Below are positions 54,601 to 60,216 of a stretch of 64,000 bases of DNA, piece after piece; position 1 is the stretch's first letter, and each line of letters begins with the position of its first letter. The stretch is taken from the NCBI GenBank assembly GCA_965248195.1, contig CBDFIQ010000002.1, positions 2,112,001 through 2,176,000 of the forward strand, in the 5' to 3' direction. The DNA comes from Longimicrobiales bacterium. Lineage in GTDB: Bacteria > Gemmatimonadota > Gemmatimonadetes > Longimicrobiales > Gaopeijiaceae. The position numbers were made by a program, and so were the translations under genes. The notes beneath the pieces are model-generated. The model saw only the letters and a list, made by a program, of their open reading frames with translations. It made no database searches and was not told where the DNA came from.

Positions 54601-55198
54601 TCTCGACTTCGCCGATCACGTCCTCCAATCGTGTCAGGTCCCGTTCGGCATGCTCAAGGCGCCTCATCGCCGCCTTGCGGCGGTCCTTGTACTTTCCGAT
54701 CCCCGAGGCTTCCTCGAAGAGGTGGCGGCGCTCCTCGGCCCGATCCGACAGAATCGCGTCGATCATTCGATTCTCGATGACCGAGTAGGCGTTGGCCCCG
54801 AGCCCGGTACCGCGGCACATGTCCAAGACATCGCGGAGCCGACACGTGGAGCGATTCAGCGAATAGTCGCTTCCCCCGTCCCTGTAGACGGTGCGTCCGA
54901 TCTCGACCTCTTTGAACGCCACCGGTAGCCCGCCGTCCTCATTGGAAACCACCATGGTGACCGCACCCCGGTTGACCGGTGGGCGATTCAACGATCCCTG
55001 GAAGATTGCCTCTTCCATCTTGCCACCTCGAATGGCGGAGGGACGCTGCTCCCCCAAGACCCACCGGATGGCATCGCTGATATTGGATTTTCCGCACCCG
55101 TTGGGACCAACGACTGCGGTGATCCCTTCATGGAAGTCGATGACGGTGGCGTCGGCGAAGGACTTGAACCCATGAATGGTGAGGGATCGAAGCTTCAT
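51683..55198 (-). CDS. smc: Chromosome segregation protein SMC
   Basis: GFKSF, GPNGCGKSN, long coiled coils, hinge, LSGGE, LDEVDAPLD. Confidence 0.96.
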   Translation of the reverse strand: MKLRSLTIHGFKSFADATVIDFHEGITAVVGPNGCGKSNISDAIRWVLGEQRPSAIRGGKMEEAIFQGSLNRPPVNRGAVTMVVSNEDGGLPVAFKEVEIGRTVYRDGGSDYSLNRSTCRLRDVLDMCRGTGLGANAYSVIENRMIDAILSDRAEERRHLFEEASGIGKYKDRRKAAMRRLEHAERDLTRLEDVIGEVETKVRSLARQKGKAERYKTLRDRRLAVEVSVVGHDLGRLRDRLSELDETLDGDRKTGQGMVAQLRTAEATVEVLRLEEVDAERIRREAAEALDGIGGRLVEWERDLAVADERKGLAERRLEQIGGDRASSETRLRGLVEELEVLASRHGDGNEELERIREDVKDRAEVVAAVRGRLDKARARLEETEHHERDVVRKGAQLEGDADAAESQAAELERRLQRIDTELSDASDALSDLESQGDLFTGRIGGLEGAVEEATAQLDSARAALGKAKLSLETARREELRAVRAAHGIEAELAALEAIERGQEGIDPVAKAALALGDPDVVGSLLSFIEAPAELGPAVEAYLGTLAEALIVRDSRTADRLIRWFSEDWQGGGGLVLLPLDNVPDKATGTLLESVHALGEGAPWVEALLGEVDLVESAKVEAPTARQRLLRDGTILDPRGLIRVGTPSVISGRLERKDRLVTLRATLSKAEVEASASRQSLEDEEARYAHAEVAVEQARTTLGNAQDEFRTASAEGAAQVDQRARMDGHRDELARQLEGTRAARARALERATTAKEDRERLLTQESDTRAVREASRSDLAVVRNEWEEARAEEARLSIRLARAEEEAKQVAQRFEDLTRDRNAQEKRLDDLDAEEEVLTGDVATAVQCQEEGKKETERLFGERDDARTVLNEKSALLTGVAEALAEAERAARELRSAEREAVDQRHQLELEHQEVSGGIGLIRERLEGEWGRPLDRLLEEAEPVEGTPEELKAELSDIVVKLERMGLVNMLAVEEHEEESARLGFLSEQRDDLVAARNDLKAAIRKINETAIDLFEDTFEKIRENFRATFTRLFEGGDADIWLSDSEDPLESPIEIHASPKGKKTQRIDLLSGGERALTALSLLFGIYLVKPSPFCVLDEVDAPLDENNIGRFIRLLQEFKEQTQFVLITHNPRSIEAADWIYGVTMEEPGVSTVVGVQLREALQTTGSAA

Positions 55199-57186
55199 TC
55201 AGGCAGTGTTCCTCGGCGGGACGTCAGAACTATTCTTCCGACGTCGGCGTCGCTGACCATCCGTCCCATCTCAGCGGCCTGGAACTCATCCGAAAAGGCT
55301 CCGCCGTATACCCGCACGCCCGTCGTGCCATCGGCATATGCAACCTGGAGCGAGTACGCTGGTATCGAAATCTCGGCCAACGCCTGTACCCTGCCTTCCG
55401 CATTCGTCGCCGAATCATACTCGCCGAAATAAAACGCGTATGGAGCATTGAGCACCCGCCAATCGTTCGGGTCCAGCCGATCCAAGACGACGGCGACCGG
55501 GTCTTTCAGGGCATTGGCCTCCACGGCACTGTACGCGGGACCCACGTAGAGTGCGAACCGTCGCGTCCCTGCCACCTCCAGCGGGGTTACGAAAAAGAGA
55601 AGATTCGGAAGCCTGCTCAGTAGGGCCTCGGCGGTACTCAGCGGAGTCTCTGCCGTGGGCCAGGTGTCGATGAACAGAACGTGGTTCATGATCGCGGATT
55701 GCGGTACTGGACCCGGCAAAGCCAGGGGGGGAGGCACGGATCCTACCCGGTCGGGGGGCGTAATTCCGGGAAAGTTTATCAGGCCGTAGTAGGCTGCAAC
55801 CGCCCCGGCACCACCCACGATCAAGATCGTCAGCAACCCGGCAAGGGATTGACGGACGAAGACCGCAAACTTCCGTCGCCGCTCCAGCCGGGCGAGACCC
55901 CGGTATCGGATCCGGCGTGCCGGAGCAGAAGCGTCAACATCGGGCTCCGTTGAGGGTTCCGCGATCACCAACTCCGAAAGCGAACCGGAAGTAGAGGCCG
56001 GGGCGGCCGCTTCGAGGTCCAGTTCCCCGAAATCAATCCCAACACTCGCGACAGCACCGGCAGGCTCGGGCTCGGAAAGCCCTTCGACGTCGTCCGGCGC
56101 ATCAACGAGCTCATTCGGTGCACCCTCTAGCTCGTCCGGCGGAGGCAGGACGCCGATTCCGGCCCTGGCCTCAAAGCCTTCCATACCAAGAGATGTGTCT
56201 GCGCCAGCGGCGACCGCCTCACCTGCAGCATCGTCCTGACCCTCGGCATCGTCCTCGACATCTGCGTCTGTCTGGCTCGCTGTCTCCAGATCCGTTCCGG
56301 AGTCCAGATCTGCGGTCTCCACCCCGACCTCCGGCGAGTCGCTCACTCCGTATTGTCCGCCCCCCAGGTCGCTTAGGCTGAAATCAACGGGCGTCTCACC
56401 CTCCTCAGATGCGCTAGAGGGCACCTCCGGCAGATCATCGACCGTGAAGGCCGGCGGCGCCTCTACCTCAGGAGAACTACCCAGGTCCTCGACCACCGCC
56501 ACAACACCCTCGTCCTCCCCAATCGAGACGACGGGAGCGTCTCCGTTCACCGGGCCCAAAACTCCGATGAGCGCGCCCGACGCACTCCCCAGGATAGTAT
56601 CGATATCCTTAGATGCCGGAGCGAGCACCAGAACTCCCTCGGCTCGCTCGGTCATAGCCTCCACACCCGGGGTGCCAGTCGACACATAAAAAACGAGCGT
56701 GGCTTTCGCCTCCCGACACCCGTTAATCATCATATCCCATCTGACGTGCCTCAGAACATCGGCGACTTCAACCACCGGCGTTCCGGCGGGGGCGAGCATC
56801 AAGCCGCCTGCGACGGGTCCCGCGAATCGCTGAGCTGACGCTCCAAAGAGCACCATGTCGGACACACCCTCACCGTTCTCCACACCCACCGCCTCGTGAA
56901 GCACCGGACGGTCGAGGCACCCATCCGCAAGAATGACGCGATGTCCGGACGCCGCCCATTTCTTTGCGACTGCCAGGCTCGCTTGGGCTCCCCAGTCGCG
57001 ATCGATTTCGGAATCGACGAGAATGACGACGCAAGCGGGCAGGGAGTCCGCGTCAACGAGGGCGGACTCGATCTCCTGCGGCAGACTCCCAGCCGTCGGA
57101 TCTAAGGGCTGCCAAGCCTGATTTCTTGGATTCATTCGTGCGTTCTCGACCTGACGATCATTCCGCCTCGTGAGTCGCCGATCCAT
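55195..57186 (-). CDS. Hypothetical membrane protein: degenerate CpsD/MinD-like domain, acidic linker, TM helix, SPOR-like C-terminus
   Basis: RVILADG.L.RP.LH...G..N..GVSD; D/E-rich middle; RRRK + hydrophobic helix; YFGEY...NAE..V.AL and RVYGGAF; start may be 57135. Confidence 0.75.
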   Translation of the reverse strand: MDRRLTRRNDRQVENARMNPRNQAWQPLDPTAGSLPQEIESALVDADSLPACVVILVDSEIDRDWGAQASLAVAKKWAASGHRVILADGCLDRPVLHEAVGVENGEGVSDMVLFGASAQRFAGPVAGGLMLAPAGTPVVEVADVLRHVRWDMMINGCREAKATLVFYVSTGTPGVEAMTERAEGVLVLAPASKDIDTILGSASGALIGVLGPVNGDAPVVSIGEDEGVVAVVEDLGSSPEVEAPPAFTVDDLPEVPSSASEEGETPVDFSLSDLGGGQYGVSDSPEVGVETADLDSGTDLETASQTDADVEDDAEGQDDAAGEAVAAGADTSLGMEGFEARAGIGVLPPPDELEGAPNELVDAPDDVEGLSEPEPAGAVASVGIDFGELDLEAAAPASTSGSLSELVIAEPSTEPDVDASAPARRIRYRGLARLERRRKFAVFVRQSLAGLLTILIVGGAGAVAAYYGLINFPGITPPDRVGSVPPPLALPGPVPQSAIMNHVLFIDTWPTAETPLSTAEALLSRLPNLLFFVTPLEVAGTRRFALYVGPAYSAVEANALKDPVAVVLDRLDPNDWRVLNAPYAFYFGEYDSATNAEGRVQALAEISIPAYSLQVAYADGTTGVRVYGGAFSDEFQAAEMGRMVSDADVGRIVLTSRRGTLPE

Positions 57187-57604: not shown

Positions 57605-57976
57605 TCAGCCGTCGAACTCGAGCCTCGGAGCATCTCCCCAGAGGACCTCCAGCTGGTAGAACTGGCGCGCCTCGTCGTGGAACACGTGGACGACGAAGTC
57701 GATGTAGTCGATCAGTACCCACCGGCCACCCTGGAGGCCCTCGATATGTTCTGGCCGGATCTCTTTCTCCTTCAATTGTTCGACGATGTTTTCGGCGATC
57801 GCCTTCACCTGGACATCGGACCGGCCGGAGGCGAGCAGAAAATAGTCCGTGGCACCCGAAATGCTGGCGAGGTCTAGCGCAACGACATCGGCCGCCTTGC
57901 GCTCAAGGGCGAGCTCTGCCGCTCGCGCGACAGCGTCGGTGATTTCGGGTCTAATTTTCTTGGATCCTACCGGCAT
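57605..57976 (-). CDS. rsfS: Ribosome silencing factor
   Basis: KA.DV..LD, DYFLLASG.S..QVKAI, W.LIDY.D.VVHVF..R.FY.LE.LW. Confidence 0.95.
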   Translation of the reverse strand: MPVGSKKIRPEITDAVARAAELALERKAADVVALDLASISGATDYFLLASGRSDVQVKAIAENIVEQLKEKEIRPEHIEGLQGGRWVLIDYIDFVVHVFHDEARQFYQLEVLWGDAPRLEFDG

Positions 57977-57995
57977 ATCGGACCTTGGCGATGGG

Positions 57996-58451
57996 CTAAT
58001 CTTCGCCCGGCTCCACCTGGATCTCGACCTCTACCTCGACCTGGCTGTGGAGCCGGACAAGCACCTTCGAGACCCCTAACAGCTTCAGGGGCTCCTCGAG
58101 CTGGACGATCCGGCGATCTACTTCGAAATCCAGTTCGCCTTGGTTCAGTCGATCCGCCACATCGGCGTTGGTAACCGCCCCGAACAGCCTCCCATCTTCC
58201 CCCGCGCGGACGTGGAACACCAGGGACGTGCCTTCCAACTGCGACGCCCGGCGGCGAGCCTCAAGGTAGTCATGCTTCGCCAGTTCCTCGGCATCATCAC
58301 GCTCCCGCTCCAATCTCCGTAAATTGCCGGCGCTTGCGAGGTAGGCCAGTCCCTGGGGAAGGAGATAGTTACGCGCGTACCCCGCCTTAACATCGACGAC
58401 GTCGCCTTGATCGCCGAGCCGGTCAACCGTCCTTCTCAGAATGAGCTTCAT
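57996..58451 (-). CDS. rplI: 50S ribosomal protein L9
   Basis: MKLIL...V..LG..GDVVDVK.GYARNYL.P, G.LFG.VT. Confidence 0.96.
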   Translation of the reverse strand: MKLILRRTVDRLGDQGDVVDVKAGYARNYLLPQGLAYLASAGNLRRLERERDDAEELAKHDYLEARRRASQLEGTSLVFHVRAGEDGRLFGAVTNADVADRLNQGELDFEVDRRIVQLEEPLKLLGVSKVLVRLHSQVEVEVEIQVEPGED

Positions 58452-58465
58452 CAATCCTTCTCCAT

Positions 58466-59410
58466 CTACGATTTGCCCGCGGCGATTCCCGTGGCCTTCG
58501 ACCGGAGGTCGAGCCAGGTATCGCCGACACCTACAACCAGGGCGCCCATGATCAGCACGGGCGCGAGGAACAACATTCCGACTGCCAAGAAAAAGAAACC
58601 GAAACCCGTCACGCCTCCGTTGAGAAAAAGCAACACTGCGGCGCCGCGCATGGCGTAGAGCCCGCCCATGAAAACGACGGCGTTGCTCCCTGCACTCGTC
58701 CATCCCTCTCCGGCACCGAAAACGATCAGTGCGATCCCCGTCAATAATAGCCACACCAGATGATCATTGAATCGGAATTCGCGAAGTGGGCCTAATTCCA
58801 GTCCGCTCCCGGCCGAGAGCCTCACGTAGGCCCACCACGCAACCGCCAAACCCGACAGAGAGGATAACCCCAGAAGAGCCGGAAAAAGCCTTCCCTGCTG
58901 TGCCGCCAACTCGAAGAGCGTATTCAGTTGGGCGGTAGAGAGGGACACCTCGGAATCGACCGCCATGGACATCTGTGCGATGAGGCTGACACTCCGCATC
59001 TTCCCCTCGGTGATGAGCCAATTCACCATGGACCATGAACCCGGTCGGACCATCAGCAAGAGGCCTACGAGTGCGGCGGTCGCAGCAACCGCAGCGAACG
59101 CTCGAGGAAAGAACCGGCTCCGGGGCCACCGCATGGATAACACGACAAACCAACCGGCGAGCACGACGGACCACCCACGCTCCAGATACCAGACGCCACC
59201 GCACGTCGGTACTCCCACAGCCACAAAGACCGCCAACATCGCCGCTACCGCCGCAGGCAACCTTCGCAAACCGAGCACCATCGTGAGGGTGACGAAGGGA
59301 ACGGCCACCAACACCCCAGCACTGGACACGGAGAAGACCAGCGTAATGACCAGAAGAGCCGCAGCCCTGGGCCAGGTTCGCTCATCAGCCACCGCACTCG
59401 CCTGGAGCAA
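58466..59410 (-). CDS. DUF2232/YybS-like membrane protein
   Basis: Multi-TM ORF between rpsR and rplI ending G.GDTWLDLR. Confidence 0.8.
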   Translation of the reverse strand: MLQASAVADERTWPRAAALLVITLVFSVSSAGVLVAVPFVTLTMVLGLRRLPAAVAAMLAVFVAVGVPTCGGVWYLERGWSVVLAGWFVVLSMRWPRSRFFPRAFAAVAATAALVGLLLMVRPGSWSMVNWLITEGKMRSVSLIAQMSMAVDSEVSLSTAQLNTLFELAAQQGRLFPALLGLSSLSGLAVAWWAYVRLSAGSGLELGPLREFRFNDHLVWLLLTGIALIVFGAGEGWTSAGSNAVVFMGGLYAMRGAAVLLFLNGGVTGFGFFFLAVGMLFLAPVLIMGALVVGVGDTWLDLRSKATGIAAGKS

Positions 59411-59420
59411 CGGAATTTGT

Positions 59421-60095
59421 TTAGACCTCGTGATCTCGGATATACGGGATCAGGGCCAGAAAACGAGCCCGCTTGATCGCCCGTCCGAGCTGACGCTGAA
59501 AACGGGCGGTGACCTTCGTGGTTCGCTTCGGCAGGATCTTGCCCTGCTCGGTCATGAACTGCGAAAGCGTCGAGACATCCTTGTAATTGAGAAGCTCGAT
59601 GACCGGTCCCTCCATGCGGCGACGGCGTCCGCGACCTCCACTGAACTCCGGGGGACTGAAGCCCCTAGCACCATCATCCTCTTCGCTCGAGGGATCCTCA
59701 CCGGACCCACGATCCTCTTCAGCTTCCTTGTCGCCGTGGTCGTCATCATCGTCCGCGTCGGCGCGGGAGGGAGGCGCTGCCCCGAGCAGGGAGTGCCCAG
59801 TCGTCGGCTCTCCCTCATTGAGCACGATCAAATATCGAAGGAGCTCCGCGTCGAGCCTGAGCACGCGCTCGAATTCCGGAAGCCCGTCCACTTCGGCCCG
59901 GACCTGGGCAACGACGTAAAACCCGCTGTTCTGCTTCCTGACCGGGTAGGCCATTTGCCGCGTACCCCAATGATCGACGGCAACGACCTCACCAATTTTC
60001 CCGACCACCAGAGGATGAAACTTCTCTAGCTTCTTGTTGACGCTGTCCTCGTCGAGGGTGGCGTCGAAGATGTAGACGATCTCGTACAAGCGCAT
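59421..60095 (-). CDS. rpsF-rpsR: Fused 30S ribosomal proteins S6 and S18
   Basis: N-terminal S6 (RLYE, HWG.RQMAYPV, GFY, LLRYL), acidic linker, C-terminal S18 (NYKD..L..F..E.GKILP.R.T......QR.L..AIKRAR.LAL.PY); no stop between. Confidence 0.92.
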
Positions 60096-60216
60096 GTCGA
60101 TTCTCCCACGGTCCGCTTGAAAATACGGGCTCCGCCGATCCGACGGAGCGGGATGAGCCACCTAATATAGGCTGTGGCTCATTCTTGGGTACCCCGGTTG
60201 GCACCTGGGTGGGGCC

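Follow-up and report, generated by a model that had tools for sequence, protein, structure and literature searches.

The window analysed here (the whole 64,000-nucleotide stretch of a Longimicrobiales genome) carries on its minus strand a single gene for two ribosomal proteins: an rpsF-rpsR fusion (59421..60095), whose frame runs from 60095 to 59421 and encodes 224 amino acids followed by TAA, with no internal stop and no cysteine. Read on the plus strand, the same interval contains a stop and is not the gene. Pfam places S6 at residues 4-91 (PF01250, E 1e-22) and S18 at residues 169-216 (PF01084, E 3e-21), and NCBIfam models TIGR00166 and TIGR00165 match residues 1-92 and 166-221, both exceeding their cut-offs, so that the single stop-free frame with both domains proposed in a first-pass annotation is borne out, on the minus strand. 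Searches of the whole genome returned one S6 and one S18, both inside this frame, and no second copy of either domain.

S6 and S18 normally pair as separate chains of the small ribosomal subunit. With the canonical bS6:bS18 heterodimer of the 30S platform (for example PDB 1G1X and 7K00) the fused protein shares both domains, their S6-then-S18 order, the S6 fold, the RNA-reading Lys/Arg and the interface Tyr-Lys; it differs from the canonical rpsF-rpsR pair in being one chain, with an acidic linker (38-180 aa among relatives) and no stop between the two parts. The gene upstream of the fusion encodes an H+-pyrophosphatase. Ten nucleotides downstream, and probably in the same operon, lies a gene for a DUF2232 membrane protein (58466..59410, minus strand); rplI, which encodes bL9 (57996..58451, minus strand; scanned from 58436, in frame), probably shares the operon as well, which runs on through 57605-59410 on that strand with DUF2232, rplI and rsfS. 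The interval 55195-57186, also on the minus strand, encodes a protein of 663 aa for which Pfam gave nothing at E <=0.001; it has a long acidic middle and a hydrophobic, probably membrane-spanning segment, and its stop and the start of an smc-like gene overlap.

The bS6 domain itself (residues 1-93; 59817..60095, minus strand, as are all features of the gene) is predicted with pLDDT 94-97, and Foldseek matches it to solved S6 chains (TM 0.91 over the target 8cwo_F, rmsd 1.4) in a single-chain comparison, a method whose scope is one chain and not the two-chain S6:S18 arrangement. It is followed by an ordered S6 C-terminal segment (59775..59816; pLDDT 88 and 80 in the blocks covering residues 91-110), which is similar in kind in split relatives, and then by a disordered, acidic linker that stems from the S6 tail (59658..59774), with pLDDT below 50 at residues 120-127 and 129-145. 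A conserved 19-residue junction motif (59601..59657) occupies the place of the S18 N-terminal zinc knuckle and leads into a bS18 core without zinc ligands (59424..59600; pLDDT 79-94), which retains the RNA-reading residues K208 and R211 and the interface residues Y171 and K172, their roles being assigned after PMC3854524 and PMC4647458. The AlphaFold model has 164 of 224 residues at pLDDT of at least 70, and its pTM of 0.71 suggests that both domains are placed together in the predicted structure. A sequence search of the PDB gave a match covering both stretches in none of the best 60 of 122 hits.

The variable acidic part of the linker here spans approximately residues 108-146, with Asp or Glu at 17 of 38 residues. 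In the family, linkers are 38-180 aa long (median 50, mean 39% D/E) and always in frame, as measured at 87 of 92 fused loci. The view that the linker is an ordinary acidic S6 tail agrees with the split relatives, all 28 of which end S6 with an acidic tail, then a stop, then S18. Very long, Ala/Glu-rich acidic linkers, up to 180 aa, occur in the fused loci L107, L112 and L114-L124, and free S6 tails are likewise very long and Ala/Glu-rich in the split loci L130-L132, L134 and L135 (one genus of another family). Directly after the linker, the 92 distinct fused loci share the consensus PPEFSG(G/A)RGRRRR-x-EGP (P in 90, P in 88, F in 89, G in 89, R in 85-90 and the final P in 92), so that the GRGRRRR noted earlier is indeed present and is only one piece of a longer conserved motif. 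The PP-x-F/Y portion is retained in 90 of 92 fusions right beside a freely varying linker. The codons of the junction vary synonymously and hold no conserved nucleotide signal; selection therefore acts on the protein. In a lineage with small genomes (L110, L111 and P0243; 1.7-2.0 Mb), the fusion is kept and the PPEF part of the junction has been lost.

Fusion of the two genes is nearly family-wide: we counted 92 distinct fused loci, all in one Longimicrobiales family. When 40 relatives were searched, 23 of 24 family genomes matched, 22 of these with one stop-free, full-length match, and the remaining one (G016) also carries the fusion, its linker being longer. Of 200 family genomes drawn, 195 matched, and the best 150 of 221 matches (the window's own included) all cover both domains without a stop; the family search covered more than 80 genus codes. 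Re-reading individually the 29 family genomes with odd or low scores showed 18 to be fused (up to 345 aa), five to be cut by a contig end or an N gap, two to be frameshifted yet with the fused motif intact and two to be truly split (G100 and G107), leaving one without an S6 match and one with a foreign-looking pair (G094, 60% complete). In that last genome approximately 430 nt separate S6 from S18 (locus L099), and the tree places them well away from the phylum; the contig is probably a contaminant.

That the fusion might be an assembly artefact or a private mutation, a stop lost in this one assembly, deserves mention because 13 of 28 split loci differ by merely one in-frame stop and because frameshifts occur in three loci (L094, L096=L109, L103). 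Its probability is nevertheless negligible: against it stand the 92 distinct fused loci, the best 120 of 1796 protein hits (all of which carry both domains) and contigs from three independent runs, each of which bridges all or most of the linker. Contigs from four public runs, the kind of read-level check over the linker that had been proposed, show inside the gene no indels other than in-frame ones of 3 and 9 nt. A metatranscriptome contig spans 59426-59856 with a 9-nt in-frame deletion as its sole difference (such contigs carry neither strand nor level, and an RNA library can contain DNA). Close relatives, far from all having separate genes, thus have PF01250 and PF01084 on one protein throughout nearly the whole family, and the artefact reading is already refuted by this conservation.

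Beyond the family, 301 genomes of the phylum and 251 of the order were searched and, among the matches listed, none outside the family was full-length and stop-free. Most outside genomes give two matches that were not read singly, so a fusion with a long linker could hide there; the 26 outside loci that were read individually are all split. (Genomes G025, G273, G355, G374, G478, G512, G523, G556 and G563 are counted only in these outside-family tallies of phylum and order.) When a tree was built from the S6 and S18 cores joined end to end (54 rows, 150 columns, LG+G4), all 21 fusions sampled from the 92 form one clade (support 100/98), and its sister is the split pair G100 and G107 (support 95/89). 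On this evidence the fusion is of single origin, inside the family. Both sister genomes read acidic tail, TAG, three bases and ATG (TAG-NNN-ATG), in frame, and S6 and S18 lie in the same frame in 13 of 28 split loci. Since the sister is split by a single in-frame TAG, the stop was probably lost once, and the loss of one stop codon would have been enough to create the fusion. The free S18 of the sisters begins MAPPK or MPPPK, an N-terminus that offers a possible source for the PP of the junction. As to the lack of ssb or priB between the domains, the observation stands and its bearing on the fusion does not: rpsF and rpsR lie within approximately 0-52 nt of each other in 27 of 28 split relatives (the longest gaps are in L136 and L141), and because these relatives also have the genes adjacent, the absence is older than the fusion. 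Three further S6-S18 fusions that look like Gemmatimonadota (P0249, P0254 and P0257) have neither PPEF nor zinc ligands; they group apart (99/93), an AU test did not reject joining them to the family clade (p 0.33), and they are possibly a second fusion origin in Gemmatimonadota.

The S18 half of the fusion has changed as well. An S18 core without the N-terminal zinc-binding cysteines had been described from the first reading, and in fact the protein has no cysteine at all. None of the 92 fusions has CxxC or CxxH, and the four ligand positions have become Arg, Glu/Asp, Thr/Ser and Phe; the CxxC...CxxH ligands are kept in 28 of 28 split relatives, both sisters included. On the tree, loss and fusion fall on one and the same branch. 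A genome-wide sparing of zinc was considered and rejected: bL28, bL31, bL32, bL36, uS14 and uS4 of the source genome keep their Cys motifs, and only for bL33 was there no match to its pattern. Since these other zinc ribosomal proteins keep their cysteines, the loss is specific to S18. bS18 is classed into zinc-ribbon (C+) and zinc-free (C-) forms. The fused S18 resembles the C- form, Thr and Phe having taken the positions held by Cys and His in relatives; it is no paralogue, being the only S18 in the genome, and not visibly imported, falling inside Longimicrobiales in the joined tree.

Upstream of the start codon lies a candidate 5' leader of the S6:S18-binding-motif type (60103..60153, minus strand), with a stem P1 (UCCC/GGGA, which contains the SD), a P2 hairpin and an extra P3 hairpin. 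An unpaired CCG (60111-60109) stands 1 nt ahead of the SD GGGAG (60107-60103). The pattern recurs in 89 of 90 fused leaders, the same sequences from which it was derived. Across 48 leaders, 96% of cells were paired, against 34-51% when the partners were slid, and two-sided changes occurred in 6 of 16 pairs, with the caveat that related sequences can beat a shuffle control even without structure. No relevant Rfam family, the known S6:S18 leaders included, was found at E up to 10. P3 is shared by the fusions and both split sisters, and none of the 26 other split loci has it; its presence in the sisters means that P3 predates the fusion. A weak -10-like hexamer, TATATT (60164..60169, minus strand), emerged from the alignment consensus just before the leader, and a sigma-70 promoter scan gave 0 sites and no full promoter. 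P2 was considered as a terminator and rejected, the terminator-like hit lacking a conserved U run.

This leader has much in common with the S6S18CBM, or rpsF leader, as set out in the available parts of three papers (PMC3854524, PMC3895269, PMC4647458): the unpaired CCR before a stem-paired SD and the hairpin on top are shared. In the motif as given there, the CCR stands 2-3 nt before the SD, as against 1 nt before GGGAG here, and the extra hairpin in the bulge here makes a three-way junction. PMC3854524 names K60 and R63 of E. coli S18 as the reading residues; aligning the fusion with E. coli-type S18 pairs these with K208 and R211, neither of which varies among the 92 fusions. In E. coli the S6:S18 heterodimer represses translation (PMC4647458, available part). 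Taken together, the features fit S6S18CBM, and an autoregulatory leader of the S6:S18 type would thus persist in the fusions. According to PMC3854524, the motif tends to be missing where rpsF and rpsR are directly adjacent. A CCR immediately before the SD was seen upstream of rpsF in 28 of 28 split loci (among L027-L032 and L128-L147), with rpsF and rpsR adjacent. Judged from these sequences, Gemmatimonadota with adjacent rpsF-rpsR appear to be an exception to the reported trend.

Very probably, the product of the fused gene is an uncleaved, covalently tethered bS6:bS18 heterodimer. The earlier suggestion of a natural tether gains support from its presence throughout the family, its single origin and its status as sole source of S6 and S18, and since S6 has no stop of its own, every S6 would be made attached to an S18, fixing the stoichiometry of the two. 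The tether is the best reading because the family does not conserve the internal Met and the search for Prp found none, points that bear on the two ways in which the chain might yield separate proteins. One feature counts against it: conservation of the junction motif exceeds what a simple tether would require, and a protease site would be conserved too. The chain could be a polyprotein that is cleaved once complete, for instance after the Phe in PPEF, to give an acidic-tailed S6 and an S18 starting S-G-G-R-G-R. Prp cuts bL27 at Phe followed by a small residue, a site that PPEF-Ser resembles, and both the retention of PP-x-F/Y in 90 of 92 and the disorder of the junction in the AlphaFold model would suit a cleavage site. 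However, Prp (PF04327) was not found in the 91.8%-complete genome (it was detected in 3 of 14 control genomes), bL27 here has no N-terminal extension, and the fused lineage of L110, L111 and P0243 does without PPEF altogether. PP also stands at the N-terminus of free S18 in both sisters, so that inheritance from S18 is the simpler account of the junction PP. The cleaved polyprotein, which the first-pass annotation had offered as its alternative, thus finds no support in the search for Prp, and we consider it unlikely.

Less probable still is a dual output, in which free S18 would be made from Met161, or free S6 via a programmed frameshift in the linker, besides the fusion. Met161 (59615) is in frame and 64-aa gene calls in the databases begin at it; as had been remarked, it has no well-spaced SD, the nearest GGAGG lying 18 nt before it. 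Yet the codon at this position is ATG in 33, GTG in 8 and something else in 51 of the 92 fusions, 44 of 92 have no ATG, GTG or TTG anywhere in the junction, and an SD-like word lies in range in only 1 of the 41 ATG/GTG cases although the genome uses SD sequences normally. The synonymous variability of the junction codons, with no conserved nucleotide signal, also speaks against a frameshift, and the 64-aa records are most easily explained as gene predictions on contigs that are cut or frameshifted. In the databases, such 64-aa "S18" calls from the internal Met (P0130, P0131, P0134, P0165 and others) are an annotation pitfall, and full fusions are labelled S6 only, or S18/S6.

The tethered heterodimer is thus the reading that we carry forward, and its history and working may be sketched as follows. 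The fusion arose once in the family from adjacent genes, the sister retaining TAG plus three bases between in-frame coding regions, and on the same branch S18 lost its four zinc ligands and gained the PPEF-Gly/Arg N-terminal motif. S6 would fold first and S18 dock onto it within the same chain, the acidic linker looping out into solvent; the single chain would then bind the S15-primed 16S central domain. Spare fusion protein may bind its own leader at the CCG bulge, blocking the SD, like the two-chain E. coli complex, and the 25-kDa chain probably remains uncleaved throughout.

A different role for the same proteins is known from Bacteroidia, where a platform pocket formed by the bS6 tail, bS18 and bS21 hides the anti-SD, as stated in the available text of PMC7797042. 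The fusion involves the same proteins and likewise a modified S6 C-terminus, but its genome differs in showing a clear SD peak, with SD words most frequent at -12 to -10 (approximately 9% against a 2% background, from crude ORF calling of 3056 long frames and 5268 ATGs), and nothing that points to SD blindness. The anti-SD is intact and bS21 is present, and masking of the Bacteroidia kind was ruled out by these facts together with the normal SD use.

S6-S18 fusions also occur elsewhere. A profile search of 1.84 billion representatives, with a profile built from zinc-free proteins, gave 54 two-domain proteins among the best 150 that were inspected: 6 of the family type, 10 excluded on visual inspection as probable chimeras or deletions (P0267, P0276, P0278, P0279, P0288, P0320, P0322, P0323, P0357 and P0368) and 38 credible others. 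CxxH is present in three of the 10 excluded proteins, in each case together with a truncated S6, and two of the 10, P0276 and P0278, are perhaps real fusions. The 38 credible others form several scattered groups outside the family clade, and none has CxxC. They share with the family's fusions the domain order, the single chain and the lack of CxxC, and differ in their linkers (some of approximately 10 residues, as in P0296 and P0299), in lacking PPEF and in lying outside the clade. ESM Atlas holds two-domain clusters from Gemmatimonadota and, as leads only with hits under 0.9, from Pseudomonadota, and a JGI label "ribosomal protein S18/ribosomal protein S6" exists. From the sequences, the S6-S18 fusion architecture is one that recurs in unrelated lineages. 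We found no description of a natural S6-S18 fusion in the literature searched, mainly the main text of openly accessible papers, and none is named in the part of PMC2837039 that was available.

What is new here, as far as the sequences go, is the loss of all four S18 zinc ligands in the fusions as against their retention in split relatives. Conceivably, the tether stands in for the zinc ribbon: fusion to S6 would remove the need for the knuckle, or would have been selected after the knuckle was lost. This idea, which we put forward tentatively and regard as possible rather than probable, would explain the zinc-free state of all credible fusions (92 of 92 in the family and 38 of 38 elsewhere), set against the ligands retained by split relatives (28 of 28) and by the other zinc ribosomal proteins of the genome; many of the other fused lineages may already have been zinc-free before fusing. 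S18 is cited as insoluble and only partly folded without S6 in the available part of PMC3895269, which would make a folding benefit of the tether plausible. If the idea is true, gene fusion in place of a metal cofactor would be a recurrent route in a core ribosomal protein, and the coupling of fusion with zinc-site loss is the part worth testing.

There is no pointer here to new chemistry or a new system. The family does offer a natural single-chain S6-S18 for studies of assembly and autoregulation, a ready test of whether tethering can replace the zinc site of S18 and, in the fusion itself, a clean clade marker. The case shows that a heterodimer at the core of the ribosome can become fixed in a single chain across a large family of bacteria, while a sister lineage still keeps the unfused state that came before.
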